DNA from: Mobula hypostoma
Taxonomy: Eukaryota
Direction: 5' to 3'
Length of the DNA: 64,000 nt
NCBI RefSeq assembly: GCF_963921235.1
Contig: NC_086097.1
Coordinates: forward strand, 104,658,001 to 104,722,000
The notes below the pieces were generated by a model. That model worked only from the letters and a program-made list of their open reading frames with translations, was not told the DNA's origin and ran no database searches. Shown here in pieces: positions 12,960 to 64,000 of this stretch. The translations under genes and the position numbers were made by a program. Positions within the stretch are counted from its first letter, which is position 1. Each line of letters starts with the position of its first letter.

Positions 12960-12966
12960 TAATCTG

Positions 12967-12986
12967 TGGGGGCTCGGCCAGGAGAT
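12967..12986 (+). promoter_or_regulatory. Primer-binding site, tRNA-Pro-like
   Basis: tgggggctcggccaggagat, 7 nt after the LTR, resembles the tRNA-Pro PBS tgggggctcgtccgggat. Confidence 0.75.
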
Positions 12987-13064
12987 GTTCCGATTTTGAG
13001 TTCAAGTGCTGGTAATTGCCATTTTGATTTGGAAAAGGGAAATACCCGATTTTTTTTGGTTTGA

Positions 13065-14180
13065 TTGGTGTGTGTGTTGTATTCGGCAACAATGGATATT
13101 GACGGGTTTTTGAAGACTCCTGACTCGGGATCTTTAGAGACTGCGAGAAAACCTGAGGTATTGGAGATTGCTAGGAAGTTGGATATTAAAGGAATTACGT
13201 GGAATTCCACCAAGGCATTCATACAAAAAAAAATCGCTGAACATTATATTAATTTGGAATTGTTTGATGCTGAGGTGTTAGAGAAGTTTCCAATGAGTAA
13301 TTTAGAAATGCAGTTGCATCTTGAACAGTTAAAGTTTGAAAAATTTAAAGTGGAAATGGCCGAAAGAGAGGCTAATAAAATAAGGGAATTTGAAGAAAGA
13401 GAAGCTGATAACCAGAGGAAATTCGAACTACAGATGCAGAAATTAAAGTCCGGGAGTCAGTCTTCTGGTTCTACGAAACAGTTTACTGCTAGTCGTGAGG
13501 TTATTTTGGCTCCTCCATTTAATGAAGCTGATGTGGACACATATTTCCAACATTTCGAAACAGTTGCTCTGAGTTTAAAGTGGCCGAAAGACCAATGGCC
13601 AGTGATGTTACAAAGTGTAATTAAAGGCAAGGCACAACAAGTTTATACAGTTTTAAATGCTGAGCAAGCACTGGATTATGATATTGTTAAGCAGCACATA
13701 TTAAAGGCATATGAGATGGTTCCGGAAGCGTATAGAGAAAGATTTAGAAGTTTAAAGAGATCAGTGGAAAAAACTTATGTGGAATTTGCCTATGAGAAAT
13801 CTGTGTGTTTTGAGAGATGGGTTTCCTCTAAAAATGTAAATGGGGAGTATAATAAATTAAGAGAGTTGATTTTGCAGGAGGAATTTAAAAGAAGCATTCC
13901 TGTTGAAGTGAGAACATACTTAAATGAACAGGACACTGCTACATTGCAGGAGATTGCTAAATTGGCTGATGAGAATGTTTTAATTCACAAGAATAAATTT
14001 TCTCCAGGTAAAATTTTTAAAAGGAAAACTAGCACAGAGAGTCAAGGTAAACCAGAAATTAAATCTGAAGTTAGTGAGATAAGTAAGGATGAAGGGAGAC
14101 ATGTGAAGGAAGGACATTTTGTATTATTTGTAATTATTGTAAAAAACCTGGACATGTAGTAGCTAATTGCTTCCGATTGA
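13065..14180 (+). pseudogene. Gmr1-type Gag (coiled coil, SCAN-like capsid C-terminal region, frameshifted CCHC knuckle)
   Basis: 364-aa ORF with PPFNEADVDTYFQHFE..WPKDQW..GKAQ..YDIVK..PEAYRERFR..LILQEEF; CNYCKKPGHVVANC follows in a shifted frame. Confidence 0.85.
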
Positions 14181-14299
14181 AACGGAAAGAGAAAGAAGCG
14201 GTCCCAGGTGCTTGTATGCAGCATATTGAAAAACCTGTAAAACCACAGGGTTTAGAAAATATTAATGAAGATGTGTCAGAGTCTGACCAAGTGAAGAAG

Positions 14300-17200
14300 G
14301 GATATGAAGCTTTTATAACAGAAGGATTTATATCCTTGAATGAAGGATCCAAGTCAGTACCAATAAGGATACTTAGAGATACTGGAGCTTCACAATATTA
14401 GACAGTGTGCTAAGGTTTAGTGATGAGTCTGACATTGGTGAGGTAAATTACATAAGAGGAGTAGGGAGTGCCCTTATGCCAGTACATTTACATAGAGCAA
14501 ATTTAAGGTCAGGATTAGTTACAGGGGTTGTTAAAGCAGGACTACAATCTAGTTTACCTGTGAATGATGTTTCTCTTTTGTTAGGGAATGATTTAGCAGG
14601 TGGACAAGTTTTCCTGAAGTGCATTTGACAATAAATTCAAATTCTGAGGAACCACAGAGGGATTCTAACACAGATTCTTCCTGTGTTGTAACTAGAGCTA
14701 TGGCTAAAAAGACTGATGTAAAGAATGAGGTTGTTACCTATGACAGTTCAAATCAAGAATCAAATTTTGAGGATGTATCAGAAACTTTTTTGCCTACATT
14801 ATTTGATCAGGATTTTGATGGTAAGTCTGACCAGGAAGATTTGTCTTTATCTCGGAAGGAAATGATAGCAGAGCAGGGTAGAGATCCTGAGATAGTTAAA
14901 TTAAAAGAACAAGCTCTTCCAGATAGTGAAATGGAAAAAGTACCAGCTGGATATTATTTTGAAAAGGGGGTATTAATGAGAACCTACAATTCCTGCTGGT
15001 GAGGAATGGGAAGTTAATCATCAGTTAGTAGTTCCTAAAATTTACCGAAATGAGATTTTAACTATGGCTCATAGTATTCCTTTGGGTGGTCACTTAGGTG
15101 TAAAGAAAACTATGAACAAAATTTCTAAACATTTTTATTGGCCTGGTGTAAGACGAGATGTGGCGTCATTTTGTAGAACATGTCATACGTGTCAAACTGT
15201 TGGTAAACTCCAGTGGCCCCACTGCAACCAATTCCAGTATTCGGTGAGCCGTTCTCAAAAACCATTGTGGACTGTGTAGGTCCTTTGCCAAAAACTAAAA
15301 TTGGACATCAATATTTATTAACTATTATGTGCACAGAGTCTAGGTTTTCAAAGGCAGTACCTCTTAGGATTATACAGCCAAAACTGTGACAAAGGCACGT
15401 ATAAAATTCTTTACTTATTTGGGGTTGCCTAAGGAAATACAATCAGATCAAGGTAGTAATTTTATGTCGGGGTTGTTTCAGCAGATAGTTTATAAACTGG
15501 GGGCAAAACAGATTATTTCCTCGTCTATCATCCAGAATCACAAGGAGCCTTGCAGAGATTTCATTCTACACTAAAAACTATGATCAGGACATATTGTGTG
15601 GAAAATGAAAAGGACTGGGATGAAGGTATACATTTACTACTTTTTGCAGTAAGGGAGGCAGTACAGGAATCATTAGGTTTTAGTCCTTTTGAACTTGTGT
15701 TTGGACATAGAGTTCAAGGACCTTTGGCTTTGTTGAAGGAACAGTGGATTAATAAAGAAGTACACACTAGTTTGCTAGATTATGTTCTGAAATATAAAGA
15801 CAGATTGTACAAAGCTTGTAGCTTGGCCAAGGAAAATTTAAAGTTAGCTCAAGAGAAGATGAAGACGTGGTACGATAAGGAAGCTAGGATGAGGTCATTT
15901 AAGCCTGGAGATAAGGTGTTGGTTCTTTTCCCAGTGCAAACGAACCCATTACAAGCCAAATTCCATGGTCCTTATGAGATTAAATCTAACGTAAATGATG
16001 TGGATTATGTGGTAAAAACCCCAGATCGGAGGAAGACAACACAGCTGTGTCATATAAATATGATAAAACCGTATTATGAGAGAAAGGTTGCTACTATGAC
16101 TGTTGTGATCAATAATGAGTCTGATCTTGATGGAATCTTACTGGAGGATTTGTCTGAAACTCACTTTAAACCCAACATTATTTCAGCCAGGTTACCAAAT
16201 TCAAAACTTCTGGAAAATATTGATGAAAAATGAGCTAATTTACGGCCAGAGCAGAGAGAGCAGATGAAACAGTTAATTTTTATATATATTTATTTCCAGA
16301 CGTCCCTAGAAGAACCACCGCAGCTGCACATTATGTAGATGTTGGAGATGCAAAATCCATAAAACAACATCCATATCGAATGAACAGGGAAAAATGTGAA
16401 CTTGCTGAACAAGAAATTAAGTATATGTTAGAGAATGATATTATTAGATATTCTAATTCGAATTGTAGTTCACCGTGTTATGGTGCCTAAGCCCGACCAT
16501 AGTTTTAGGTTTTGTACAGATTACAGAAGGGTGAGTGCTGCGACAAAAACTGATGCATATCCAATCCCTAGAGTAGATGATTGTGTGGATAAAGTTGGAC
16601 AGGCCAAATTCCTTACAAAAATTGATTTGTTAAAAGGTTATTGGAGTGTTCCATTTAAGGATAGAGGTAGAGAGATTTCAGCATTTGTAACCCCATCTGG
16701 GTTATATGAATATAATGTTCTTCCATTTGGGATGAAGAATGCACCAGGTACTTTTCAGAGGATGATTAATGGATTAAAAGATACAGATGCCTATATTGAT
16801 GATTTGGTTACAGGGAATAATACGCGGAAAGCACATGTTATGGCAGTGGAGAAATTATTTGAGAGACTTTCAAAAGCTAACTTAACTATTAACTTCGCTA
16901 AGAGTAAATTTAGTCATGCCACAGTGACTTACCTTGGTTATGTTGTGGGTCAGGGAAAATTAGCACCTGTTCAAGCAAAAGTTCAGGCAATTTTAGAAGT
17001 ACCCACTCCAACTGATAGAAAAACTCTCAGAAGATTCTCAGATATCACAGAAAATTTTGTAAGGATCTTGCAAACATTGTTCTTCCATTAACTAATCTCT
17101 TGAAGAAAAATGAGAAATTTGTTTGGATAGAGTCTTGTCGGGAGGCATTTGATAAATTGAAAGCTATAATGTGTAGTCAACCTATACTTAAATCTCCTCA

Positions 17201-17600
17201 CTTTGAAAAACCATTTTCATTAGCTGTAGATGCTAGTGATGAAGCTGCAGGAGAAGTGTTACTTCAAAAAGATGATGGTGATGAAGTTGAACGTCCGGTA
17301 GCTTATTTTTCTAAGAAATTTAATGCCCATCAAAGAAATTATTCAACAATAGAAAAAGCATTGTTATCTCTTGTTTTAGCTTTACAACATTTTGAAGTGT
17401 ACATTGGTTCTACTCATAAACCACTCACAGTTTATACAGATCACAATCCATCACTGTTTTTGAGTAAAATGAAAAACAAAAATAGATTATTAAATTGCAG
17501 TCTAATGTTACAGGAGTACAATATTTTGATCACTCATATTAAGGGTAAAGACAATATGATCACTGATTGTTTGTCTAGATGTCAAATGTACAATGAAAAT
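14300..17600 (+). pseudogene. Gmr1-type pol: protease, integrase, RT, RNase H (fragmented)
   Basis: ILRDTGASQ (about 14370); integrase HHCC GGHLG..CHTC (15064), QSDQGSNF, RFHSTLK, FHGPY; RT FCTDYR, PFGMKNAP, YIDD (16435-17091); RNase H LAVDASD, NYSTIEK, VYTDH (17100 onward). Confidence 0.9.
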
Positions 17601-17756
17601 TTGTTGTTTTGGAGTGATATTTTAACATTCGTAACATTCCCACTGTACATTAGTTTGTAAAGGGCTGAAAAATAAGATTGTATGTACTCTGTATTTTGTA
17701 AATTTTATACCTTTGTATTTTGTATAAATTGTTAAAATTTTGTTCAAGAGACCAAA

Positions 17757-18604
17757 AATGATCTTTTGGAGGTCACCTGATGTGATTTTCCCGCCAATGT
17801 GAGGTCACGTGATGGCATGTGCCCCATGGCTATATAAGGGTCGACCCAGGTGACGCAGTTGGTTTTTAGTTTGTAGATTTCCAGGTAGGATGTGCTGTAT
17901 CTTCGTTTCTGTTGCGTGTTTGTTTTTGTGACACAGTTTCATTTTTAAAACGGTTTTGCGTTCTATTGCAAGATACCATATTATTGGACTGGAAATTTTT
18001 GGCTAGATGTGTTGATTTACCCAATTCCAACAGTAGAAGGGAGAGTGAAGAATTTATCGAAGTACAGGAGCGAAGGATCGAGAAAAGTCAGCATCGTTTG
18101 GCAGTTTAATAAAGGACCGACCTTATTGAGGCTTCATTGGAGGAGTAGCTACCTGCATCGGAGATAACTCTTTCCAAAAAGAGCAAGGAGTTCATGCAAT
18201 GGTGCTCTCTCTCTAAAAGAATTTAAGGTCAGTTGTTTTAAACTGTTTATTTTCGGCATCGTGAATCCTGTGGACAGAACCAGCAGGAAAGTTGTGTCTG
18301 TGATGAAATCCTTTTCCAGAGAAGTCTCTCCCAATTGAACGTGCAAATCTGTTCGACTTTCAAATTTACCATTTTAAGAACTATATCTGACTTTACTGCT
18401 TTAAGAACTGTTTTCGCATTTAACGCTTTAAGAACCAGTGCCGAGTGACGGAGTGATTTGTTGAATGGCTGCATAACGGTTATCTTCCGGTTAAAGTTTT
18501 CATTTGTTTTTTTTAACCTTATGGTTTATCCGTGTTTAATAAATGTTTGGTTGTTTTTATATAACCTGTCTCGATTGATATTCATTGTTGCCAGTTACGT
18601 AACA
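17757..18604 (+). repeat. 3' LTR of the Gmr1-like element, lacking its first ~45 bp and the polypurine tract
   Basis: Homology to the 5' LTR starts at aatg(a/g)tcttttggaggtcac; ends taaca followed by the TSD. Confidence 0.88.
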
Positions 18605-33914: not shown

Positions 33915-34241
33915 TTAGCGGAAGTTAGAGAAGTCAATGTTCATGCCATCAGGTTGGAGGCTACCCAGACGGAATATAAGGTGTTGTTCCTCCAACCTGA
34001 GAGCGGCTTCATCTTTACAGTAGAGGAGGCCGTGGATAGACATATCAGAATGGGAATGGGATGTGGAATTAAAATGTGTGGCCACTGGGAGATCCTGCTT
34101 TCTCTGGCGGACAGAGCGTAGGTGTTCAGCAAAACGATCTCCCAGTCTGCGTTGGGTCTCGCCAATATATAGAAGGCCACATCGGGAGCACCGGACGCAA
34201 TATATCACCCCAGCCGACTCACAGGTGAAGTGTCGCCTCAC
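33915..34241 (-). CDS. Penelope GIY-YIG endonuclease C-terminus (open frame)
   Basis: GVIYCVRCSRCGLLYIGETQRRLGDRFAEH...VATHFN..H...EEQHLIFRLGSLQPDGMN. Confidence 0.8.
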   Translation of the reverse strand: MRRHFTCESAGVIYCVRCSRCGLLYIGETQRRLGDRFAEHLRSVRQRKQDLPVATHFNSTSHSHSDMSIHGLLYCKDEAALRLEEQHLIFRLGSLQPDGMNIDFSNFR

Positions 34242-37200
34242 CTGGAAGGACTGTCTGGGGCCCTGAATGGTGGTAAGGGAGGAAGTGTAAGGGCATGTGT
34301 AGCACTTGTTCCGCTTACAAGGATAAGTGCCAGGAGGGAGATCAGTGGGGAAGGATGGGGACGAATGGACAAGGGAGTCGCGTAGGGAGCAATCCCTGCG
34401 GAAAGCAGAGAGGGGGGAGGGAAAGATGTGCTTAGTGGTGGGATCCCGTTGGAGGTGGCGGAAGTTACGGAGAATTATACTACGGAGTACTAGAGGGAGT
34501 TAGGACGGAAGTTGAGAAGCAGGACTGCTAAGGTAGTAATCTCGGGATTACTGCCTGTGCGACACAACGGTGAGATAGGAATAGAATGAGGTGGAGGATA
34601 AATGCATGGCTGAGGGATTGCAGCAGGGGGCAGGGATTCAGATTTCTGGATCATTGGGGGGCAGATGTAACCTGCACAAAAAGGACGGGTTGTATTTGAA
34701 TCCCAACGGGACCAATACCTTGGCGGGGAGGTTTGCTAAGGTTACTGGAGAGAGTTTAAAACTAGAATTGCTGGGGGTGTGGAAACAGAACTAAAGTGAC
34801 TGGGGAAGAAGAGGTTAGCTCACAAATAGAGCAAGCTTGCAGACAGTGCAAGGGGGAGGATAGGCCGGTGATAGAGAAGGGACGCGCTCAGAGCAAAGGT
34901 TTGAGATGTGTCTATTTTAACGCAAGGAGTGTTGTGAACAAAGTGGATGAGCTTAGAGCGTAGATCAGTACTTGGAGATATGTCGGCCATTACAGAGACT
35001 TGGATGGCTCAGGGACAGGAATAGTTACTTCAAGTGCTAGGTTTTAGATGTTTCAGAAAGGACGGAGGGAGGCAAAAGAGGTGGGGGCATGGCACTGTTG
35101 ATCAGAGATAGTGTCACGACTGCAGAAAAGGTGGACGCCATGGAGGAATTGTCTACGGACTCTCTGTGAGTGGAGGTTAGGAACAGGAAGGGGTCAATAA
35201 CTTTACTAGGTGTTTTTTATAGGCCACCCAACGGTAACAGGGATATTGAGGAGCAGATAGGGAAACAGATCCTGGAAAGATGTAATAATAACAGAGTTGT
35301 CGTGATGGAAGATTTTAATTTCCTAAACATTGATTGGCATCTCCCTAGAGCAAAGGGTTTAGATGGGGTGGAGTTTGTTAGTTGTGTTCAGGAAGGTTTC
35401 TTGACACAACATGTAGATAAGCCTACAAGAGGAGAGGCTGTACTTGATTTGTATTGGGAAATGAACCTGGTCGGGTGTCAGATCTCTCAATGGGAGAGCA
35501 GTTTGGAGGTAGTGATCATAATTCTATCTCCTTTACAATAGCATTGGAGAGAGATAGGAACAGGCAAGTTAGAAAAGCATTTAATTGGATTAAGGGGAAT
35601 TATGAGGCTATCAGGCAGGAAATTGGAGGCTTAAATTGGAAACAGATGTTCTCAGGGAAAAGTATGGAAGAGATGTGGTAAATATTCAGGGGATATTTGT
35701 GTAGAGCTCTGTATAGGTACATTCCAATTCGACAGGAAAGTTATGGTAGGGTACAGGAACCGTGGTGTACAAAGGCTGTAATAAATCTAGTCAAGAAAAG
35801 AAAAGCTTATGAAAGGTTCAGAGAGCTAGGTAATGTTGGAGAACTGGAAGATTATAAGGCAAATAGGAAAGGGCTTAAGAAGGAAATTAGGAGAGCCAGA
35901 AGGGGCCATGAGAAGGCCTTGGCGGGCAGGATAAAAGACATTCTGGGCACTCTGCAAGTATGTGAAGAGCAAAAGGATAAGACGTGAAAGAATAGGACTT
36001 ATCAAGTGTGACAGTGGAAAAGAGTGTATGGAGCTGGAGGAAATAGCAGAGGTACTTAATGAATACTTTACTTCAGTATTCACTATGGAAAAGAATCTTG
36101 GTGATTGTAGTGATGACTTGCAGCAGACTGAAAAGCTTGAGCATGTGGATATTAAGAAAGAGGATGTGCTGGAGGTTTTGGAAAGCATCAAGTTGGATAA
36201 GTCACCGGGACCAGATGAGATGTACCCCAGGCTACTGTGGGAGGCAAGGGAGGAGATTGCTGAGCTTCTGACAATGATCTTTGCATCATCAATGGGGACT
36301 GGAGAGGTTCTGGAGGATTAGGGGTTTGCGGATGTTGTTCCTTTATTCAATAAAAGGAGTAGAGATAGCCCAGGAAATTATAGACCAGTGAGTCTTACCT
36401 CAGTGGTTGGTAAGTTGATGGAGAAGATCTTGAGAGGCAGGATTTATGATCATTTGGAGAGGTATAATATGATTAGGAGGAGTCAGCATGGCTTTGTCAA
36501 GGGCAGGTGGTGCCTTACAAGTCTGATTGAATTTTTTGAGGATGTGACTAAACACATTGATGAGTACTAATGGTAAGACTCTTGGCAGTGTGGAGGATCA
36601 GAGGAATCTTGGGGTCCGAGTCCATAGGGCGCTCAAAGCAGCTGCGCAGGTTAAGAAGGCGTACGGTGTATTGGCCTTCATCGATCATGGAATTGAATTT
36701 AGGAGCCAAGAGGTAATGTTGCAGCTATATAGGACCCTGGTCAGACCACTCTTGGAGTACTGTGCTCAGTTCTGGTCACCTCACCACAGGAAGGCTGTGG
36801 AAGCCATAGAAAGAGTGCAAATGAGATTTACAAGGATGTTGCCTGGATTGGGGAGCATGCCTTATGAGAATAGGTTGAGTGAATTCGACCTTTTCTCCTT
36901 GGAGCGATGGAGGATGAGAGGTGACCTGACAGAGGTCTATAAGATGATGAGAGGCATTGATCGTGTGGATAGTCAGAAGCTTTTTCCCAGGGCTGAAACG
37001 GTTCCACAGGAGGACACAGGTTTAAGGTACTGGGGAGTAGGTACAGAGGAGATGTCAGGGGTAAGTTTTTTAACTCAGAGAGTGGTGAGTGCGTGGATTG
37101 GGCTGCCGGCAACGGTGGTGGAGGCAGATACCATAGGGTCTTTTTAAGAGACTTTTAGGTAGGTACATGGAGCTTAGTAAAATGGAGGGTTATAGGTAAG

Positions 37201-49768: not shown

Positions 49769-50017
49769 ACCATAAGATATAGGAGCAGAATCGGCCATCT
49801 TCTCCACCATTCAATCATGGCTGATCCTTTTTTCTATCTCCTCCTCAACCCCAGTTCCCGGCCTTCCCCCCGTAACCTTTGATGCCACATCCAATCAATC
49901 TCTGCCTTAAATGCACCAAATTACCTGGCCTCCACAGCTGCATGAGGCAAGAAATTCCACAAATTCACCACCCTTTGGCTAAAGAAATTTCTCCGCATCT
50001 GTGTTTTGAAAGAGCAC
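49769..50017 (-). mobile_element. CR1 3' end
   Basis: accataagatataggagcagaa tail; FKTQMRRNFFSQRVVNLWN. Confidence 0.8.
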
Positions 50018-50019
50018 CT

Positions 50020-52145
50020 TTGCTCCATGCTCTGGAGTCTGTGGTCTATGGTCTCTGCCCTAAACTCTATGGTCTGAGCTCTGTGGTCTGTGGTGTATAG
50101 CCTCTGGCCTATGCTGTACAGTCTGTAGTCTATGGTCTTTGGACTAAGCTCTTCGGTCTGTGGTCTACTATCTGCGGTGTACGTTCTGTGGTCTATGGTT
50201 TCTAGCCTAATGTCTTCGACTGTGTTCTGCAGTCTGTGGTCTATGGTCGTTAGCCCAAACTCCACTGCCTAAGATCTATGGTCTGTGGTCTGTAGGCTCT
50301 GGCCTCAGCTCTTCAGTCTTTGATCTATGTTCACTAGCCGAAGCTCGTCAGTTTCTGCTCTATGGTTTGTAGTCTATGGTTTCTGGCCTTAACTCTTCAA
50401 ACTGTGTTCTGTAGTCTCTGGCATAAGCTCTACTATCTGAGCTCTGTGGTCATTAGTCTATGGTCTCTTGTAGAAGCTCTGTGGTCTGTGTTCAATGGTC
50501 TCTCACCAAAGCTCTATGGTCTGTGGTACATGGACTCTTGACTAAGATCAACAGTCTGTGCTCTAAAGGATGTTGTCTATGGTCTCTGGTCTAGGCTCTG
50601 CTCTAGCTCTATGGTCAGTGGTCTATGGTCTCTGGCCAAAGGTCTGTGGTCTATATTCTGCAGTTTATAGTCTAACGGCTCAAACCTATATTCTACGGTC
50701 TGTGCTCTACGGTGTGTGGTCTCTGGTTTCTGGCACTAGCTCTACTGTCTGTGGACTATGGTCTCTGCCGTAAGATCTACAGTAGGAGCTCGATAGTCTA
50801 TGGTCTATGTCCTGTGGTCTATGCCCTCTGGCCTAAGCTCTTCAGTCTGTGCTCTGCGATTTGTGGTCTATGGTCTCGGGCCTAAACTCCTCGAACTGTG
50901 TTCTACAGTCTCTGCGATCGCTCATCTAAGCTCTCCGGCCTGTGCTCATGTCTGTAGTTAATGGTCTCTCGTCGAAGTTCTGCTGTCTGTGGTCTGTGGT
51001 CACTGGCCTAAGCTCTACTGTCTGTGCTCTATGATCTGTCATCTATAGTCTCTGACCTAAGGTCTGTGGACTTTGATCTACACTGTGCTGTCTCTGGTCT
51101 ATTGCCTAAACTCTATGATCTGTGCAATACGGACTTTGGTCAATGGTCTCTGCTTAAGTTCTACCGTATGTGCTCCATGGTCCGTGGTCTTTGGCCTGTG
51201 GCCTAAGTCTTACGGTCTGTGTTCTATGGTCTGTGCTCTCTGGTCTCTGGCACTAGCTCTACGGTTTGTCGTCTATGGTCTAAGGTCTACACTATGAGGT
51301 CTAGTGTCTATGGCCTATGATCTCTGGCCTATGCACTACGATCTGTGGTCGAAGCTCTGCTGTCTCTGCTTTAAGGTCCTTGATCTATTGTCTATGGCCT
51401 AAATTTAGAGTCTCTGTTCTAAAGTATGTAGTCTTTGGTCTTGGGCTCTGTGGTCTGTGGTGAATGGTCTCTGGCCTCAACTCTTCAAACTGTGCTCTGC
51501 AGTCTGTGTTCTATGGTCTCGAGCCTACGGTCTACCGCCTATCCTCTATGGTCTGTAGTCTATGGTCTCTCATAGAAGTTCTGTGGTCTATGGCCAATGG
51601 TCACTGGCCTAAGCTCTACAGTCTGTGATCGATTATTTGTCAACTATAGTCTGTGATATAAGATGTATGGACTATGCTCTACAGTCTGTGGTCTTTGGTC
51701 CCTGGCTGAACCTCTTCAGTCTGTGCTCTATGGTCTGTAGTCTATGGTCTCTCGTAGAAGCTCTCTGGTCCGTGCTCAATAGTTGTCATCTATGGTCTCT
51801 GACCTAAGCTATATGGACGATGCTCCACAGTCTGAGTTCTACATTCCATGCTCCATGTTCTATGGTCTATGCTCTGTGGTCTCTGGCACGTGCTCTGTGC
51901 TCTATCCTCCATGATCTATGGTGTATGCTCTATGGTCTATGCTCTGCTCTATACTCTATGGTCAATGCTATATTTTCTTTTGTCTTGGCTACATGGTCTA
52001 TGCTGTGTGGTCTACCGTCTATGCTCTCTTCTCTGCATTATGGTGTATGTTTGTTGTCTTGGCTATATGGTCTCTGCTCTGCAGTCCATGCTATTTGCTC
52101 TGTGGTCTGTAATGTATCGTCTACGCTCTGTGCTCCATGCTCTAT
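50020..52145 (+). repeat. Heptamer-based satellite (CTATGGT/CTGTGGT/CTCTGGC/CTAAGCT) with higher-order units
   Basis: Reads in 7-nt register as ctgtggt ctatggt ctctggc ctaagct ctacggt; a simpler (ctatgct)-like block lies at about 51830-52145. Confidence 0.88.
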
Positions 52146-54642
52146 GATGTAGAAACATATGATGATATGTAGAAACGTATGATGTGGAGTCGTTTGGAAC
52201 CAGTATTATATGCTCCTTAAATGGAAGAAGTTTGAGTCAATTACATAAGAAATAGCATATGGTGCTGATCACTTTTCAAGCATTTTCATCACAGTGGCGC
52301 AGCTTCACCGAAAATGCTAATGAGAGAAAGTAATGCATAGAAACCAAAAATCATACATTTCCATTTTGCTCAAAAATACGGAGGGGTAATTAGGTGCAAA
52401 TGTATTATTTATACGAAACCTATGATGTAAAGTCTTTTGGAACCAGTATTATGTGCGTGGTCCTGAAACTGAACAAGTTTGAGGCATTAACTTAACAAAT
52501 TGCACAGGATCGAGATTTAGTGTTTTCACAGCAAAAGACGTACAATGCCAATTGCCAGGAAAGTTCCTAAGTGGCAATGTGCCATAAACAACCACAATTT
52601 AGGCATTCTATGTTTTTTATCTGTATACTTTACATTCTGCTCTGTGCACTTAAGTTTTCAGTTTGAAGTGGCAATGTGATGAAAATGCTTGAATACAGAG
52701 CAGGACCATTGAATACATAAAGTGAAGCGGTTTCCAACAAGTTGCCACATGGCATTTTCCTGGAACTGCATATTGTATGCCATTTGCACTGAAAAGGCTA
52801 AATCTTGATAATGTGCAATTTTTTATATAACTGATACTAACTTCTGTTTAAGGAGCATACACATAATACTGGTTCCAAATGACTCTGCATCATATGTTTT
52901 GTAAGAATAATACGTTTATACATTGTCACCCCTCAGTATTTTTGAGCATAATTGTACTGAATGCTTTTTAGTCTGTATGCTTTACTTACTGCTTTATGCA
53001 TTTTGTGTAATCTATGTGCATTTATCTTCTCAGGTTGAAGTGCTACAGTGATAAAATGCTTGAATAGTGATCAGCAACATAAAATACCTAAATTGCATTG
53101 GTTTAGAACACGTTACTCAATTCTGTGCAATTTGTGATATAACTGATACTAACTTATCCAGTTTAAGGACCACACACATAATACTGCTTCCAAATGACTC
53201 TAAGTCATACGTTTCCTAAAAATAATACATTTACACCTAGTTACCCCTCAGTATGCTTGAGCAAAATGTAAATGGGTGTTTTTGTCTGAATGCTTTACTT
53301 TCTATTATGTGCATTTTGAGCAATCTATGTGCATCTAACTTTACAGATTGAAGTACCACAGTGAAGAAAATGCTTGAATAGTAATCAGCAATGTAGAATA
53401 CCTGAATCGAAGTGGTTTACAGTACTTTACCGCTTAGGAAGTTTGCTGGCAATTGGTAATGCACACATTTTGCTCTGAAAAGGCTAAATCTCGATTCTGT
53501 GCAATTTGTTATATAACTGACACAAACTTATCCAGTGTAAGGATCACACACATAATACTGCTTCCAAACGAATCTACATCATATATTTCTTAAAAATAAT
53601 ACATTTACACGTTGTTACCCCTCAGTATTTTTGAGCATAATTGAAATGTATGCTTTTTAGTCCGTATGCTTTACACTGTGCACTTTGTGTAATCTATGTG
53701 CATTTAACTTTTCAGATTAAAGTACTGCTATGATGAAGATATTTAAATAGTGATCACCAACATAGAATACCTTAATTGCAGTGGTTTACAACACGTTACC
53801 ACATAGGAACATTCTGGGCAGTTAGCATTATATGCCTTTTGTTCTGAAAACGCTAAATCTCGATTCTGTGCAATTTGTGATATAACTAACACTACCTTTT
53901 CCGCTTTAAGGACCGCACACATAATACTGGTTCCAATCAACACTAAACCATAAGTTTCCTATAAAATAATTGATTTACACCTAGTTAGCCTTCAATATTC
54001 TGGATTAAAATGTAAATAAATGGTTTTTGGTCTGAATGTGCATTTTGTGTAAACTATGTGCACTTAACTTTTCAGGTTGAAAATGTGCTGAAAATGCTTC
54101 AATACAGAGCAGCACATAAAGTGAATTGGTTTAAAAATAATTTGCCACATGGCATTCTCCTGGAACCTCAGTTTGCTCTGAAAATGCTAAATCCCAATTC
54201 TGTAGTGTCTCTGTGTTTTAAGTGCCTGGATAGTGATCAGCAACAGAGTATACCTAAACTGTAGTGGCTCACAGCACATTACCACAGAGGAACTTCTGCA
54301 GTTTGTTATATAACTGACTGTAATTTCTTCAGTTTAAGGAGCGTACACCTAATATTGGTTCCAAACAACTCTACATCATATATTGCGTAAAAATGATACG
54401 TTTACTTCTTGTTACCCCTGTATTTTTGAGCATAATTGAAATGTATGTTTTACTTCTGCTGTGTGCATTTTGTGTAATCTATGGGCATTTAACTTTTCAG
54501 ACCGAAGTGTCTCAGGGATGGAAATGCTTGAATAGTGATCAGCAACATACAATACCTAAATTGTAGTGGTTTACAGCACGTTACTGCGTAGGAACTTTCC
54601 TGGCAATTGATATTGTACGCCTTTTGCTCTGAAATCGCTAAA
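52146..54642. repeat. AT-rich ~370-bp tandem repeat with an internal orientation switch at about 52615
   Basis: Anchor cataatactg(g/c)ttccaa at about 52862, 53177, 53551, 53920 and 54349; its reverse complement tttggaaccagtatta at about 52193 and 52436. Confidence 0.8.
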
Positions 54643-57600
54643 TAGACGACAGACTACAGAGCTTCGCCAAGAGAAAACAGACTACAGGCAGTAGAGCTTA
54701 TGCTAGATACCATAGACTAGAGACTGCAGAACACAGTTTGAAGAGTTAAGGCCAGAGAGCATAGACCACAGTCCGTATGGCACAGATCGTAGAGCTTAGG
54801 CCAGAGACCACAGTCCACATCCACAGTGAGTAAGGCATAGTCTGCAGAGCTTAGGTCAGAGACCATAGACGATAGATCACAGACCACAGACCACAGAGCT
54901 TCTACGAGCAACTATGGGCTACAAACCGTAGAGTCCAGGCAGTTGAGCTTAGGGTAGAGACCATAGACCACAGACTGCAGAACACTGTTCAAAGAGATTG
55001 GGCCAGATATCATAGACCATAAACCATAGGCAACAGACCGAACAGCTTTGGCTAGAGATGATATACCACAGACTGTAGAGCTTAGGCACGAGACCAAAGA
55101 CCACAGACCATAGACCACAGAGTGCAGAGCTTCGACTACAGACCATAGACTGAGAGCAAAGAACATTGAGTTTAGGCCAGAGAACACAGACCATAGACTA
55201 TCGAGTTCAAATGGCAGAGACCATGGACTACAGTGAGTAGAGCTTGCGGCAGAGACTGGAGAACACACATCGTAAAGCACAATCTGTTGAGCTTAGGCCA
55301 GAGAGCATGGACCACAATCCGTACTGCTCTGGCCAGGGACCATTTTCCAGAGACTGTGGAGTTTCTGCCAGAGACCATAGAGCAGAGACTGTAGATATTA
55401 GGCCAGAGTCCATGTTCCACAGACCGTAGAACTTAGGATAAAGACCGTAACCCACAGACTGCAGAACACAGTTCTCACTTTGGGCCAGCGAACATAGACC
55501 ACAAACTGAAGAGCAAAGACTGAAGACCTTAGGCCAGAGATCATAGACCACAAGCCGCAGAGCACAGATGGAAGAGCTCCTGCTAGAGACAATAGACCAC
55601 AGAACATTGATGACTGACAATAGACCACAGACCGAAAAGTTTCGTCAGGAGACCATAGACTACAGACCATGCAGGTTAGGCCAGTGGCCATAGACCACAA
55701 ACCGCAGAGCTCAAAGCGTAGAGAGTCCGCCAGAGACCATGGACCACAGACCTGAGATCTTGGGCCAGAGATAGACCATCGACCATACAGCACAGGCCAA
55801 AGAACTTCGGCGAGAGACCATAGACCACAGACTGTAGAGCTAATGCCAGAGACCATAGACCACAGTCCATATAGCACAGATCGTAGAGCTTAGGCCAAAG
55901 ACCACAGACCACAGAGTGTAGGGCATTGTCCATAGAGCTTAGATTAGAGACCATGGACAACAGATCAGAGAACACAGACCGTAGAGCATAGGCCAGGTAC
56001 CCTAGACCGGAGACCTCAGAGCTTCTACAATAGACAAGAGACCATTGACTACCATAGATTAGAGACCATATAGCACAGACTGCAGAACACAGTTCGAAGA
56101 GATGGGCTGGAGATCATAGACCATAAACCGTAGACAACAGATCAAAGTGCTTTGGCCACAGACCGTGGAGCTTAGGCCAGAAAAGACAGACCACAAACTG
56201 TACAGCATAGTCCATAAAGCTTAGGTTAGAGACATTAGATGACAGATCATAGAGGACAGACAAGCTTAGGCCAGTGACCATAGACCACAGACCGCAGAGC
56301 TTCGTCGAGAGACAATAGACTACAGGCGGTAGAGCTTAGGCTAGAGATCAGAATGTAGAGAGTCAGAAAGAGACCATGGACCACAGACTGTAGACCTAAT
56401 ACCAGAGCCCACATAGACCACATTCCATATAGCACAGATGGTAGAGCTTAGGCCAGAGACCACAGACCATAGAGTGTAGGGCATAGTCCATAGAGCTTAG
56501 AATTGAGACCATGGACGACAGATCAGAGAGCACAGACCATAGAGCATAGGCCAAGTGCCCTAGACCAGAGACCTCAGAGCTTCTACGAGAGACCGTAGAG
56601 CACAGCCAGTATAGCTTAGACTAGAGACCATAGACAACAGACTGCAGAACACAGTTCAAAGAGATGGGCCAGAGATCATAGACCACAAGCTGTACACAAC
56701 AGATCGAGAAGCTTAGGCCAGAGACCATAGACCACAGACTGCAGAGCACAGAATGTAGAGCTTCGGCCAGAGACCATAAACCACAAACTGTAGAGTATAG
56801 TCCATAGAGCTTAGGTCAGAGACTATAAACGACAGATCATACAGCACAGACCGCAGAGCTTAGGCCAGTGATCGTAGACCACAGAACACAGAGCTACGCC
56901 AAGAGACAATAGACTACAGGCAGTAGAGCTTAGGCTAGAGACCATAGACCACAGACTGTAGAACATATTTTGAAGAGTTAAGGCCAGAGACCATAGACCA
57001 CATACCTTACAGCACAGACCAACGAGCTTCGGCTAGATAACATAGACAACAGAGCGTAGATCTTGGGCCAGAGACAGCAGTTCACATCCACAGAGTGTAG
57101 GATATAGTCCATAGAGTTTAGATCAGAAACCATAGACAACAGATCATAGACCACAGACCACAGAGCAACCAGACAATACAGACCATAGGGCATAGGCAGT
57201 TGAGCTCAGGGTAGAGACCATAGACCAGAGACTGCAGAACACTGTTCGAAGAGATTGAGCTAGAGATAATAGACCACAAACCGTAGACAACAGATAGAAG
57301 AGCTTTGGCTACAGACCATAGACCACAGACTGTAGAGATAAAGCCAGAGACCATACACCAGAGGCTATAAAGCTTAGGCCAGAGAGCATAGACCACAAAC
57401 CATGCTGCTTTGGCCACAGACCATTGTCCACAGACCGAATTTTGGCCAGAGACCATAGAGCAGAGACCGTAGATATTAGGCAAGAGTCCATATTCTACAG
57501 ACCGTAGAGTTTAAGCTAAAGACCATAGCTCACAGACTTGCAGAACACAGTTCAAAGAGTTTGGGCCAGAGACCATAGACTACAAACTGTAGAGCACAGA

Positions 57601-58377
57601 CTGAAGAGCTTAGGCCAAAGACCACTGATGAAAAACCATAGATATTAAGCCAGAGACCATAGATCATAGTCCATATAGCACAGCTCTTACAGCTTAGGCC
57701 AGAGACCAGAGACCACAGATTGTTGAGCATAGTCCATAGAGCTTAGATCAGTGACTGTAGAGGACAAATCATATTGCACAGATCGTAGCGCTTTGGCCAG
57801 TGACCATAGACCAAAGACTGTACAGAATACTCCATACATCTTATGTCACAGAGTATAGATGACAGATCATAGAGCACAGATCATAGAGCTTAGGCCAGTG
57901 ACCATGGACCACAGACCACAGAGTTTCCACGAGAGACCATAGACTACAAACCATAGAGCATAGGTGGTAGATCTGAGGCTAGTGACCATAGACAACAGAT
58001 TGTAGAGCTCAGTTCAGAGAGTTTAGGCCAGAGACCACAGACCACAAACCGTACAGCATAAACCGATGAGCTTCGGCTGGAGACCATAGGCCACAGATGG
58101 TATAGCTTTGGCCAGAGACCAAAGACCACAGACAATTGAGCTTCGACCAGAGATCATAGACCATAAACCGTAGAGCAAAGTCCATAGGGCAGAGGTATGA
58201 GACCATAGATGACAGATCACTGAGCACAGACCGTAGAGCTTCGGCCAGTGACAGACCATAGACTGCAGAGCTTGGAATAGAAACCATAGACTACAGGCAG
58301 TAGAGCTTAGGCTCGAGATCATAGACCACAGACTCTCAGAACACAGTTCCAGGAGTCTAGGCCAGAGATCATAGATC
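54643..58377 (-). repeat. Heptamer satellite, inverted orientation
   Basis: accatag accacag / agcttag gccagag units, the reverse complement of 50020-52145. Confidence 0.88.
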
Positions 58378-58481
58378 TGTCATGGTCCTGGCCATCCCTC
58401 CCTTTTATTCCTCATGTTCTCCTAATTCCCTTTTCCCCATGTTTCTCCTGCTCCCCTGTCTGTGTGCGTGTGCATGTGTGT

Positions 58482-58535
<54 letters not shown>

Positions 58536-59061
58536 ACGCGCGCAGTGGACGTTCCTTTTGTTCTCCCGGGCTTCCTGATTGCGGCGCACCTGAATCCCAT
58601 CTAACCTGCAGCATAAATACCCCGGCTTTCCATCCACTCATCGCCAGATCATTGCTTCAGCCAGTGTGGTAGTTCACATTCTAGGCCGCTTAGAATTGTG
58701 TATTCTAAGTTTTGTTTTTGCGCTGTTGTCTGCCTGTCTCTCCGTGTTAACAGGAGCATTGCATGCTGCCTACCTTCACGTTCATCCTCCTACCTGCCGT
58801 TCTCTTCCAGCCACGCTCACACCCTTGTCTGCATCCCTGCTCTGCCTCATCCCGCCACCCGCCTACACTCTCCGCTGGCTCAGTGGTTAAACGCTGTGCT
58901 CTCACCGCAGTGACCCAGGTTCAATCCCCAGTCAAGCCACGCTCTTTCCTCTGCCGAATCCTCACTCCCCAGCCTTCCCTGCAATCATTAATAAACACTC
59001 GTCAGATTACTCTACCTCCATGTCAGTATCCTGTGTTTGGGTTCACCCGTTCATTGCAACA
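58378..59061 (+). repeat. 5' LTR of the sushi-type element
   Basis: tgtcat...gcaaca; TATA-like cataaata at 58612; AATAAA near 58990; (TG)n at about 58460-58534. Confidence 0.85.
58869..58938 (+). other. tRNA-Glu(CTC)-derived cassette inside the LTR (not a functional tRNA gene)
   Basis: A box tggctcagtgg (58876-58886); anticodon arm ctgtg-ctCTCac-cgcag; B box ggttcaatcc (58918-58927); acceptor stem does not pair. Confidence 0.75.
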
Positions 59062-59077
59062 GAACGATCCGGCCAAC

Positions 59078-60075
59078 AGGTACCCAGCGGACACAAACAC
59101 CATCCAACATGCCCTCGCCAGCCAGGGTCCCCTACTGGGGCAGCATGACCAACTCCTCCGGGAGGTCATGGAGGACCCACATTCCCTGTCTGCTCACGTC
59201 ACGCAGATCGGTAACCAGGTGGACCGTGTCTCCACTTATATCACTCAACCCACACCTGGAACCCAGCCTAGCCAGCCCAGACAGCCTGTAGCGGCAACCC
59301 CTCAAGCTTCACCAACAACCCCGCCCAGACAGCCTCACATACCAGAGCTTGAGCACTACGCTGGAGACCTGGGGAAGTGTCGGGGTTTCCTCCTTCAGTG
59401 TTCCCTGGTGTTGGAGCAGCAGCCGTTGACCTACTCCACAGATAAGTCTAAAGTTGCTTATGTCATGGGGTTGCTAAGGGGGAACGCTTTAGCGTGGGCC
59501 ACAGCAGTCTGGGACAACCAACCTGATTTCTGCTCCTCTTTCGCCAGTTTCATTGCAGAGATGAGAAAGGTCTTCGATCACCCGGTCCGGGGTAAAGACA
59601 CCGCCAAGCACCTACTCATTCTCCGCCAGGGCTCCCACAGTGTTGCTGAATATTCAGTGGAGTTCCGGACGTTAGCAACCGACCTGGGGTGGAACGATGA
59701 GTCACTCCAGGGGGTATTTCTGAATGGACTTAGCAACCTGATGAAGGTCGAGTTGGCGGCAAGAGACGATACCAACAGCCTGGATTCCCTGATCTCCCTG
59801 GCCACCAGGTTGGACAATCGCCTCCGGGAGCACCATAGAGAGAGAACTGGTTGTCCACCACCCTTGGACACTTCTCTGCTCTTTTTACCGCCTCCCCCCA
59901 GAACAAACCTCTCTCCCCATCCTGCAGCCCAAGTAGCTCCCAGCCCTGCCGCTTCAACAGCCCTGGGAGATGCAGCTGGGGTGGAACTGCCTATCTCCCG
60001 CTGAACGACTCCGGAGAATGAGAGCGGGCGAGTGTTTATATTGCGGTCAGTCCAGACACTTCCTTGCCACCTGTT
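59078..60075 (+). pseudogene. Sushi-type Gag (related to the PEG10/RTL-type capsid)
   Basis: PELEHYAGDLGKCRGFLLQC..KVAYVMGLLRGNALAWA..LRQGSHSVAEYSVEFRTLA..WNDESL; no intact start codon; CCHC in a shifted frame. Confidence 0.85.
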
Positions 60076-62785
60076 CCCTTCAGCCAAAAGGGTCGGGGGG
60101 GGGGTTCACCTGTAGCAGTGGGGACCCTGGTGAGCCAGCCAATATTCCCTTTCAACACCCGACCCCGGATGCAGCTTCAAGCCACTCTGTGTCATAATCA
60201 ACAGTCCTTGCCTCTGCTAGCGCTAGTGGACTCTGGCGCAGAGGGAAACTTCCTGGACGAAAACCTAGCCCTCCAAGCCGGTATTTCTCGTGAGCCCCTG
60301 AGTACCCCCCGGATGCCACTAGACTCCTGGCCCGTGTCATGCACTGCACAGAACCCCTGCTTCTCCTTCTCTCCAGAAACCATTGGGAACAGATACAGTT
60401 CAATCTAATCTCCTCTCCTCAGGCCCCTTTAGTTCTCAGCCACCCGTGGCTAAGCTGTCATAACCCCCACATCGACTGGTCTACCGGGAAGATAGCTGGA
60501 GCTTGTTCTGCCATTCCTCTCGCCCGCAATCAGCCCTTCCTCCAGTGGAGATCATGCGACCTTGTCTGCCTCTGAGCCCCCCGACTTATCCACAGTTCCC
60601 GTAGGATATCATGATCTTGGAGAGGTGTTTAGCAAGCAACGGGCCCTTTCTCCACCTCCACATTGCCATTACGACTGCACAATTGACCTTCTCCCTGGAG
60701 CCTCCTTACCCACCAGTCGGCTGTATAGCTATGGAGACGTGCGTAAATGACTCCCAAGTGGCTGGCATCATCTGACTCTCATCTTCCCCCGTAGGCACTG
60801 GTTTCTTCTTTGTGGCAAAAAAAGACGGCTCGCTACGCTCATGCATCCACTACCGTGGCCTGAACAACATTACCATAAAAAATAAGTATCCCCTGCCGCT
60901 GATCAACTCAGCATTCGAGCCCCTTCACGGAGACACTGTATTCACTAAAATGGACTTGCAGAATGCCTATCACTTGGTCAGGATACAAGAGGGAGATGAA
61001 TGGAAGACAGCCTTCAACACCCCACTCGGCCATTTTGAATACCTGGTGATGCCTTTCGGCCTGACCAACACTCCCGCGGTGTTCCAGGCTCTGGTCAACG
61101 ACGTCCTTAGGGACTTTATCAACCGATTTGTCTTCATTTATCTGGACAATATCCTAATCTTCTCCCGCAATCTCCAGGAGCACACCCTCCATGTCCGCCA
61201 GGTTCTTCAGAGGCAGGAAAACAAACTATTTGTAAGGCCGAGAAATGCGAATTCCATGCCCGTTCCACCAGTTTCCTGGGGTACATCATTGAAAGCGGGC
61301 AGGTGAGGATGGATCCCGAAAAGATCTGGGCGGTGGCAGAGTGGCCCAACCACACTTCGCTTAAACAACTCGAGCGATTTCTGGGATTCGCCAATTTCTA
61401 CCATTGCTTCATCACAGACTACAGCTGGGTGGCAGCGCCCCTTACCCAGCTCACCTCTCCTGCGACCCCCTTCCACTGGACTCCCGAAGCGAACTCAGCC
61501 TTTTCGGAGCTGAAGAGGCGTTTCACCGCCACTCCCATCCTGGTCCAGCCTGCCCCCCCCCCCCCGCCAGTTCATAGTGGAGGTGGATGCCTCCGACACT
61601 GGGATGGGGGCGGTCCTCTCTCAACGCTCCATCCCAGACCAAAAGCTCCATCCCTGTGCTTTCTTCTCTCGCCATCTATCCCCCGATGAACGTAACTACG
61701 ACGTTGGGAATCGTGAGTTGCTGGCTGTCAAACTCGCCTTGGAGGAGTGGAGGCACTGGCTGGAGGGAGCAGAACACCCATTCATTGTTTGGATGGACCA
61801 TAAGATCCTGGCATACATTCAGACAGCTAACCGCCTTAACTCTCGCCAGGCCTGTTGGGCACTGTTCTTTGACCGCTTCAATTTCACCCCCACCTACCGT
61901 CCTGGTTCCATGAACGTAAAGCCAGATGTTCTCTCTTGCCAGTACGTCTCCGAGGAGGGTCCTTCCAATTCTGATTCCATCCTGTGTCATGGCTGCTCTC
62001 ACCTGGGAGATCGAGTCCGTAGTTAGAGAGGACCAACAGACTCAGACAGACCCAGGCAATGCTCCCCCCTCCCCAGTCGTCTCTTCGTGCCTGACTCTGT
62101 CTGTTCACAGGTTCTTCAGTGGGGACATACTTCCCGGTTCCCCTGCCATCCTGGAATCGGTCGCACCCTGTCCCTTTTAAAGCAACATCTCTGGTGGTCC
62201 ACCAAAGATGTTGACACTTGCTCCTTTGTCTCTGCCTGTACAATGTGTGCTGCGGTAAAGCCTCCCATCGGCCACCTGCTGGGTTGCTTCGTCCCCTACC
62301 TGTCCCTAGCCGCCCTTGGTCCCACATAGCTCTCGATTTCATCACTGGTCTACCCCCTTCACATGGTAATACAGCTATATTGTGGACCGTTTTTCCAAAG
62401 CCGTGCACTTCATAGCCCTTCCCAAATTCCCTACAGCCCGTGAAACAGCCGACCTCCTTGTACAACACGTCTTCCGCCTTCATGGAATTCCCTCCGACAT
62501 CGTTTCTGACCAGGGGCCTCAGTTCATCTCCCAAGTCTGGAAGTCCTTCTGTCAAGCCCTCGGAGCTTCAGTTAGTCTGTCTTCCGGTTTCCATCCACAG
62601 ACGAATGGTCAGATGGAGTGAGCCAATCAGGATTTGGAAGAAGCACTGCGCTGCATTTCCGCCAGTAACCCGTCATCCTGGAGCACATATGCCCACAACT
62701 CCCTGACCAGCACCACCACCATTATGTCCCCTTTCAAATGTTCTCTTGGCTATCAACCCCCTCTGTTTCCTGCCCACAAAGACAA

Positions 62786-62906: not shown

Positions 62907-63042
62907 TTTCAAAAGCACAGAGGTAATTCTGGACCTTGTCACACCCGCTTCCTTCAGAAAAAAAATTTTTGATGAAGGCGAAAATTTTTTTTAGTCTATA
63001 TGTAAATTACAGAGTTTGAAACAATACCTGTATGATCATCAG
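62786..63042 (-). mobile_element. Fragment of another LTR element: end of internal region, PPT and start of 3' LTR
   Basis: Minus strand aaaaattttttttctgaaggaagcggg|TGTGACaagg (PPT 62944-62955, LTR start 62943); (GA)n tracts. Confidence 0.5.
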
Positions 63043-63044
63043 AT

Positions 63045-64000
63045 ATTGGGTCTATGGTCTCACCCCTAAGCTCTACTGTCTGTAGTCTATGGTTTTTCTT
63101 CCAAGCTCTGCAGTCTGAGGTCTATGGTCTATGGCCTAAGGTCTACAGTCTGAGCTCTATGATCTGTCCTCTATGGTCGCTGACCTAAGCTGTATGCTCT
63201 GCAGTTTGTGTTCTGGGGTCTCTGGCCTATGCTGTCCTATTTGTGCTATATGAACTCTGGTCTACGGTCTCTGGCCTAACCTCTATAGCCTGTGGTGTGT
63301 GGCCTCTGACCTTATCTCCACAGTCTGTGGTCTCTGGTCTTTAGCAGAAGCTCTTCGATCTGTTGTCTTGGTTTGTGGCCCGTGATCTCTGGCCCAAACT
63401 CATCGAACTGTGTTCTACAGTGTGTGGTCTATCGTCTCCAGTCTAAGCTCGATTGCCTGTTCTCTACTGTCTGTAGTCTCTGGTCACTCATAGAAGCTCT
63501 GTGGTCTATGGTCAATGGCCTATGCTGTACAGTCTGTGCTCTATGATCTGTCATCTATGCTCTCTGATCTAAGCTCTATGGACTATGTCCTAGATTCTGT
63601 GGTCTCTGGTCTCTGGTCTCTGGTCTAAGCTCTACGATCTGTGCTATACAGACTGTGGTCTATGGTCTCTGGCAGTCGTTCAACAGTCTGTGGTCTATGG
63701 TTTCTAGCCGAAGCTCTTCGGTCTGTGCTCTATGGTTGGTGGTCTGTGGTCTCTGGCCTAAGCTTTATGGTCTGTGGCCTATGGTTTCTGGCCTAAGCTC
63801 GACAGTCTGTGGTCTATGTTCTCTAGCTGAAGCTCATCGGTTTATGCTTTACGATTTGTGTCCTATGGTCTCTAGCCTTCACTCTTCGAACTGTTTTCTG
63901 TGGTCTATGGTCTCTAGGTTAAGCTCTACTGCCTGTAGTCTATGGTTTTCCTTCCAAGCTCTGCGTTCTGTGGTCTATGGTCACTGGCCTAAGCTCTACG
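63045..64000 (+). repeat. Heptamer satellite, forward orientation; runs off the window
   Basis: ctatggt ctctggc ctaagct units. Confidence 0.88.

Follow-up and report, generated by a model that had tools for sequence, protein, structure and literature searches.

The long terminal repeat (LTR) of a decayed sushi-type Ty3/Gypsy element of Mobula hypostoma contains a segment that, judging by its sequence, derives from the host's tRNA-Glu(CTC), and this segment is part of a block restricted to one subfamily of the element's family. The reading in which we place somewhat more trust than doubt is that of a real, subfamily-wide piece of tRNA origin, most likely captured once and carried since as a passenger, with RNA polymerase III (Pol III) boxes that are not needed for spread and a poly(A) signal that is the likelier useful part. 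In extracts of the main survey, tRNA pieces in LTRs are described for miniature non-coding elements, with SINE insertion proposed as their origin (PMC10886601). In the present case a single coding family offers both filled and empty LTRs, which allows the capture to be located on a tree and its usefulness to be examined; so far the outcome is that the boxes were dispensable for spread. The block also ties the capture of a tRNA piece to the gain (or loss) of the LTR's predicted poly(A) signal, and it is the mark of a lineage in which host gene pieces were multiplied. All the copies examined are old and broken, and the family is dead.

The tRNA-Glu-derived segment

In the window, i.e. the whole 64,000-nt stretch that was analysed, the segment is confirmed as real by its score against shuffled sequences and by motif positions read in the sequence (Table 1). 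The local score of the LTR against the genome's own tRNA-Glu(CTC) gene is 41, a value reached by none of 1000 shuffles (mean 16, maximum 28), and identity to the host tRNA is 32/41 over tRNA positions 27-67. In a comparison panel of 8 ARAGORN classes (46 sequences) recovered from the genome, Glu-CTC came out best by a wide margin (45.0), followed by Glu-TTC (29.9) and the others (25 or less); since this panel is small, another donor may exist for the 5' half of the segment. The preliminary description, made from the letters alone, had proposed this origin and had placed box A, the CTC-bearing arm and box B between the TATA box and the poly(A) signal of the LTR, and all the motifs were found where it put them. 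It was also right that the mismatches in the T stem are of CpG type: both are, and most copies pair there.

Table 1. Features of the block-bearing element in the window (position 1 is the first letter of the window)
Feature	Position	Strand	Basis and remarks
5' LTR (TG...CA), sushi-type Ty3/Gypsy, block-bearing 'A' type	58378..59061	+	Sequence; LTR query of the genome
TATA-like box ATAAATA, predicted Pol II promoter	58613..58619	+	Sequence; 30 nt before the self-primer
Predicted self-primer, equal to the predicted 5' end of the genomic RNA	58643..58653	+	Pairs with the primer site at 9 positions in this copy and at as many as 11 in others
Subfamily-specific block: pyrimidine-rich leader, tRNA-Glu piece, pyrimidine tract, AATAAA	58838..59007	+	Alignment with empty sister LTRs
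tRNA-Glu(CTC)-derived segment	58869..58939	+	Can be followed from box A until shortly after the T arm; no acceptor stem; one base missing from the D arm
Box A TGGCTCAGTGG	58876..58886	+	Sequence; box A pattern passes in 22/36 A-type and 18/30 B-type copies
Anticodon-arm remnant, stem CTGTG/CGCAG, 7-nt loop with CTC	58894..58910	+	Sequence; pair 28-42 unpaired in 50/58 rows
Box B GGTTCAATCC	58918..58927	+	Sequence; invariant A lost in 9/36 A-type and 0/28 B-type copies
AATAAA inside the block, predicted poly(A) signal	58990..58995	+	Present in 23/36 A-type and 22/30 B-type copies
Primer-binding site, complementary to the LTR's own 58643-58653	59062..59073	+	Sequence complementarity
gag remnant	59077..60004	+	Pfam Retrotrans_gag E 1.5e-15; Ty3_capsid
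pol remnant (RT, RNase H, part of integrase)	60779..62770	+	Pfam RVT_1 E 7.8e-26, RT_RNaseH E 2.4e-31

That the cassette is a one-off SINE insertion in this single copy, or a chance match, might be argued from its score with the Rfam tRNA model, which at 22.4 bits is under the cut-off of 29. However, it is present in 30/30 loci retrieved with the LTR (a query which itself contained the cassette), in 29/30 loci picked by sequence outside it and in both LTRs of 14/16 elements examined, and the shuffle test speaks against chance; this explanation is refuted and is left with practically no probability. The claim that the cassette is built into the LTR of a gag-pol element thus stands, since it sits in both LTRs of elements with gag-pol anatomy.

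The host element

The element shows the features of Tf1/sushi chromoviruses: a gag, RT and RNase H of Ty3/Gypsy type, a C-terminal chromodomain (Pfam Chromo E 2e-9 in the sister copy L041, the window copy being cut before that point) and, from its sequence, a self-priming complement instead of a tRNA site. Target site duplications (TSDs) of 5 bp flank L041, L042, L045, L240 and L259. Published Tf1/sushi elements likewise have an LTR-complementary primer site about 30 nt after the TATA box, the order gag-PR-RT-RH-IN-chromodomain and a 5-bp TSD, but the portions of these accounts used here mention no tRNA-derived LTR segment (PMC4600332, PMC3601003); the Mobula family also differs from sushi elements in that most of its copies lack the usual AATAAA. 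In the window copy, pol is broken by stops and frameshifts and is cut off, and no 3' LTR was found in the window or in the following 8 kb. Querying the genome with the LTR returned 951 candidates, 40 of which were scored (78-86% identity). The nearest relatives outside this genome are metagenome contigs with 71-76% RT identity, and the viral contigs searched contained two distant relatives without full LTRs.

The self-primer complement extends over 9-11 matches in most elements scored, block-bearing and block-less alike, and the cassette lies within the predicted R region of the LTR. The view that the cassette has no role in priming is borne out by a primer site that pairs with the LTR's own sequence. 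The second block-bearing LTR type (B, see below) shows a T-to-C change in the self-primer in 9/14 LTRs scored, versus 0/23 in A, and the primer site has the corresponding A-to-G change in 3/6 B elements, the two changes not being concordant within every element.

A block confined to one subfamily

The block measures 181 nt in most copies and 170 nt in the window copy. Among elements picked by gag, it is carried by 8/30 and 4/30 in two overlapping sets; the other loci belong to sister subfamilies with 78-90% gag identity, in which the LTR sequence continues uninterrupted where the block would be. The empty-LTR join (58836 to 59009) also occurs in the public contigs X3 and X4; contigs of the public runs X1-X4 cover this stretch, but contigs cannot indicate transcript starts, strand or level, and none of the public runs listed is recorded as RNA. 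Neither AATAAA nor ATTAAA was seen in any of 37 block-less LTR ends. The block is therefore a property of one subfamily, and the preliminary description went too far in attributing the cassette to the family as a whole. It had itself named absence from most LTR copies and lack of covariation as grounds for abandoning its reading, and both absence from most related LTRs and lack of covariation were found.

Several features of the copies are worth recording in their own right. Block-less LTRs (e.g. L083, L084, L090 and L098) have a short unit repeated in tandem up to four times in R, and a deeper, somewhat younger block-less subfamily (L192-L195, L201, L202 and L207) has a quite different LTR. 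The closest relatives tend to share a contig, within 0.5-6.5 Mb of each other (L041/L045, L082/L093, L087/L028 and L089/L044), with flanks that differ where compared. The 5' and 3' LTRs sometimes carry different haplotypes, which suggests gene conversion or local spread.

No tRNA gene and no conserved cloverleaf

As a tRNA gene the cassette was rejected: it has no cloverleaf with an acceptor stem and fails the tRNA finders, ARAGORN calling no tRNA in the window or in any of 32 LTR loci. In an alignment of 57 LTR copies and the host tRNA (58 rows), the share of cells that are paired is 29% for the acceptor stem, 70% for the anticodon arm and 87-88% for the T arm, and the D stem is one base short. 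The G-C to T-A pair previously described as compensatory (28-42) is unpaired in 50 of these rows and U-A in six; it is a decay product of the window copy, since its T sits at a CpG. The preliminary description had recommended a covariation test and a tRNA model for the collected LTR copies, and neither spoke for a tRNA fold: covariation is at shuffle level (116/500 shuffles reach the same value) and the Rfam score is the one given above. RNAalifold returned a different, weak fold, with two-sided change in 1/12 pairs. Folding energy z-scores (-0.7 to -1.4 for cassette copies) were not used, because genuine tRNA-Glu itself scores +0.2 and the test is thus without power.

These results bear directly on the proposal of a tRNA-mimicking fold adopted by the segment within the element's RNA, with a role in packaging, processing or stability. 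Pairing of the T and anticodon arms, and the presence of the segment at both ends of the predicted RNA, would be consistent with it. However, the poorly paired acceptor stem, the broken pair 28-42, the covariation matched by shuffles and the deviating fold make a mimic very improbable, and this part of the preliminary description was not borne out.

Use of the Pol III boxes

The invariant A of box B is lost in both LTRs of four elements (L043, L087, L089 and L028), whose upstream flanks differ where compared, which argues that templates with a broken box B were copied and integrated. In L082 and L044 box B is broken in one LTR only, a discordance that points to later recombination and blurs this evidence. 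The predicted self-primer lies 225 nt upstream of the Pol III start expected near 58869, so that a Pol III transcript from there would be without it and cannot be a template as in Cassandra. Together with the four elements in which box B is broken in both LTRs, this means that Pol III transcription cannot be the route of replication, and an internal Pol III promoter needed for spread, as envisaged earlier, has thus not been borne out. No fixed T4 terminator was found, the distance being 15 to 1776 nt in 14 elements. Both boxes pass in 13/36 A-type and 11/30 B-type copies, the window's copy among them, and since both are intact in such copies, these might incidentally bind TFIIIC.

It has to be asked whether selection nevertheless favoured the boxes within the LTR, as a Pol III promoter or a site for TFIIIC (an insulator, a chromatin opener or a source of side transcripts) that helps the subfamily, above all its non-autonomous members. 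The survival of both boxes in those copies after long decay, the absence of fixed change at 14 key box residues (p 0.011) and the box B invariant A that is intact throughout the B type would fit such a role; conservation may, however, date from a SINE stage, and elements with a broken box B were integrated all the same. Pol is present in 4/15 block-bearing (A-type) elements versus 29/31 block-less ones, which recalls Helenus and Cassandra, where Pol III boxes likewise go with non-autonomy, but this association represents one clade rather than independent events. Against a promoter also stand the self-primer upstream of the Pol III start and the lack of a fixed terminator. Selection on the boxes thus appears doubtful. 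A and B types differ at 0/20 box positions versus 17/262 overall, a difference in the direction expected under selection though short of significance (p 0.25), and no site outside box B was linked to the broken-box haplotype at p <0.01, the same count being reached by 7/660 transversion alleles.

Donor and SINE-like pattern of change

At 18/72 positions, at least 80% of 57 copies differ from the host tRNA. These fixed differences are unevenly spread, with 4/41 at positions 27-67 versus 14/31 elsewhere (p 0.0009), and none falls on the 14 key box residues mentioned above, which we take to be those of the type 2 promoter consensus. On sequence grounds, the pattern of change in the segment appears to be that of a SINE head.

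The order within the block is tRNA head, pyrimidine tract and AATAAA, followed by TCTT in 29/45 copies; the R region of the LTR is pyrimidine-rich anyway (0.67 versus 0.76). The same order of tRNA head, pyrimidine tract and AATAAA characterises T+ SINEs (B2, Dip, Ves and Can), but these are, in the excerpted text, reported from mammals only (PMC8466645), and in the block a full Pol III terminator of that type was found in 1/45 copies and an A-tail in 0/45. The block was therefore rejected as a T+ SINE in spite of its AATAAA.

A free tRNA-SINE with its own tail, the other finding that the preliminary description would have held against itself, did not emerge from the donor searches. Two motif searches gave 40 and 39 matches, and the 30 loci examined from each proved to be in LTR context (30/30 and 30/30), the exact-match patterns used being such as would miss a diverged donor. 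Among 81 candidates for the host tRNA query, of which 40 were scored and 30 loci examined, there were genes, pseudogenes and tRNA-SINE chimeras, none with the flanks of the block; a search with the block's 3' part gave 207 candidates. As a separate observation, seven loci (L226, L228, L230, L231, L232, L235 and L236) hold full-length tRNA-Glu copies followed by a short linker and an apparent SINE head, some of them sharing downstream sequence.

Gain or loss of the block

Single gain of the block is found in two of three rooted trees. In the pol tree, built on 1893 columns with 4 outgroups, 26 block-less rows branch off one after another before a terminal clade (100/98) that unites the 4 block-bearing rows; the block-less rows form one clade in 0/200 bootstraps (AU p 0.043, marginal), and a tree from gag to RT (2211 columns) agrees with gain. 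In the gag-only tree (770-nt alignment), the outgroups join the block-bearing side and the block-less rows form one clade (98); the outgroup branches there measure 0.8-1.3 changes per column, which calls for a long-branch warning. Outgroups were taken from metagenome contigs, and the rows left out were L088, L196, L203 and 6 rows of the young subfamily for the gag-only tree, and L088 and rows less than 60% filled for the pol tree. No tRNA match was found in 11 outgroup loci, one of which (L112) has a whole LTR without cassette. Three block-less rows fall inside the block clade of the gag-to-RT tree: in L088 the deletion is larger, in L090 (= L196) the interior is of the block clade but the LTR is empty, and the LTR of L203 is both empty and shortened. 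An LTR tree without the tRNA columns is nearly without resolution (3/63 branches starred).

The alternative is that the family in this genome had the block from the start and lost it in one deletion, between two short stretches resembling each other, from which the block-less subfamilies descend; in that case capture of the tRNA piece would be older, and the piece dispensable all the same. Besides the gag-only tree, two observations would fit. AATAAA near the 3' end is described as a general feature of Sushi LTRs in the part of the source drawn on (PMC3601003), and in L112 it is about as far from the LTR end as in the window LTR, so that the 3' part of the block could be ancestral. The two borders of the block resemble each other (8.8/16 versus a background of 5.3, n=24), a similarity that would fit a deletion as well as a decayed target duplication or a template switch guided by microhomology. 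However, the pol and 2211-column trees contradict the alternative, the gag-only tree is subject to the long-branch warning, and age lends support to neither gain nor loss, since non-CpG divergence between 5' and 3' LTRs is equal in block-bearing (0.073, n=12) and block-less elements (0.071, n=26; p 0.96). Ancestry of the block is unlikely, if still to be taken seriously, and although the trees disagree on the root, the block was quite probably gained rather than lost.

Non-autonomous carriers and captured host RNA

Most block carriers are non-autonomous elements, with pieces of host mRNA, CCDC93 and Cullin, among their contents. These pieces (CCDC93_N, Pfam E 3e-9; Cullin, Pfam E 4e-7) are found in elements of the B type (406 candidates), which consist of about 80 nt of internal start, about 900 nt of host coding pieces and then the element's 3' end (L059:1697-2700; L244, L248, L252, L256, L258, L260 and L268), with LTRs of 0.9-1.6 kb and inserts of 1-1.7 kb. 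The B-type LTR looks chimeric, its 5' part being like block-less LTRs and its 3' part block-bearing. In most block-bearing A-type elements, a second coding-like insert replaces pol while gag is kept (L041:2570-4800); it is common to L042, L044, L045, L082, L087, L089, L092, L028, L066, L090 and L268, and the long captured ORF of L041 has no match in Pfam or Atlas.

A mechanism for capture of host mRNA by LTR elements is in print (Tan et al. 2016, PMC5131818). In the portion of that paper used here, LTR-mediated retrocopies likewise have internal ORFs replaced by host mRNA pieces from more than one gene, and amplify further, but there the captures are internal, whereas the tRNA block sits in the LTR. 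Since capture of host RNA is a habit of this lineage, it is plausible by analogy that the block, too, was captured by template switching.

Under the passenger reading that we prefer, an RNA headed by tRNA-Glu, probably SINE-like, with its acceptor stem already lost and boxes A and B kept, would have come to lie in the R region, whether through insertion of the LINE type at a place bounded by two short, similar stretches or because the element's reverse transcriptase switched templates. Because it lies in R, the block would be duplicated into both LTRs at each round and so copied into every daughter LTR, and the element would have continued with its own TATA promoter and self-primer. If any part of the block is selected, this is more likely to be AATAAA, which the sister LTRs lack.

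Relation to known elements

The closest parallel is offered by the Helenus TRIMs and TRIMp3, whose LTRs both contain boxes A and B of tRNA origin, without a functional tRNA and without use of this sequence as primer (Kojima 2024, PMC10886601, in part). SINE insertion into the LTR is proposed there as the origin of Helenus. The Mobula elements share with them the tRNA-like boxes in both LTRs, but Helenus elements are below about 1.3 kb (about 0.3-1.3 kb), non-coding and tRNA-primed, with 4-bp TSDs in animals, whereas those described here measure about 3-6 kb, carry gag-pol or long captured inserts between LTRs of 0.7-1.6 kb that keep a TATA box and self-primer, and show TSDs of 5 bp; neither the short non-coding TRIM size nor a tRNA primer-binding site nor the 4-bp TSD was found. 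The vertebrate Helenus sequences in the portion of the supplement consulted show no likeness to the cassette by eye, and the word 'shark' is absent there (PMC10886601). The cassette-bearing element thus resembles Helenus and is not a member of it. One may speculate that it preserves, in fossil form, the event from which Helenus-type elements have been proposed to arise, in which an extinct T+-like tRNA-Glu SINE would have entered the LTR of a coding chromovirus and restored a poly(A) signal together with a TFIIIC site, the lineage then drifting to non-autonomous elements that carry host mRNA and benefit from the boxes; we regard this as a long shot.

Cassandra and Ajax likewise have a piece of a Pol III gene in the LTR, but one from 5S rather than tRNA, and Cassandra is transcribed from its 5S piece and tracks changes of the host promoter, a dependence not seen here (PMC10886601, PMC10853983, both in part). 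The preliminary description had interchanged two of these names: according to the same extracts, tRNA belongs to Helenus and 5S to Ajax (PMC10886601). In cqgypsy_1 of Culex, tRNA sequence (Lys and Glu) is inserted between direct repeats in a Gypsy LTR, but as far as the available part of the report goes this is a dimer of mature tRNA, CCA included, that lies in the 5' LTR of a single element (PMC3286476), whereas here a diverged piece is fixed in both LTRs of a subfamily. The literature searched, with Repbase and Dfam outside its range, holds no account of a vertebrate chromovirus with an LTR segment of tRNA origin. Such sequence in LTRs is not unheard of, since 'not a few LTRs' in Repbase are stated to contain sequence resembling tRNA, TRIMs being the only ones pursued further in the text consulted (PMC10886601).

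Other features of the window

The block-bearing element sits in satellite DNA (50000-58377 and 63000-64000) built on multiples of 7 nt (14, 35 and 49), and the satellite arrays on its two sides are oppositely oriented. Positions 12294-18237 are taken up by another LTR element, which is younger; its repeats are 98% identical and 5644 nt apart, and it has SCAN, RT and integrase pieces. On the minus strand, at 33918-34496, a GIY-YIG frame (E 7e-5) likely belongs to a Penelope-like element.
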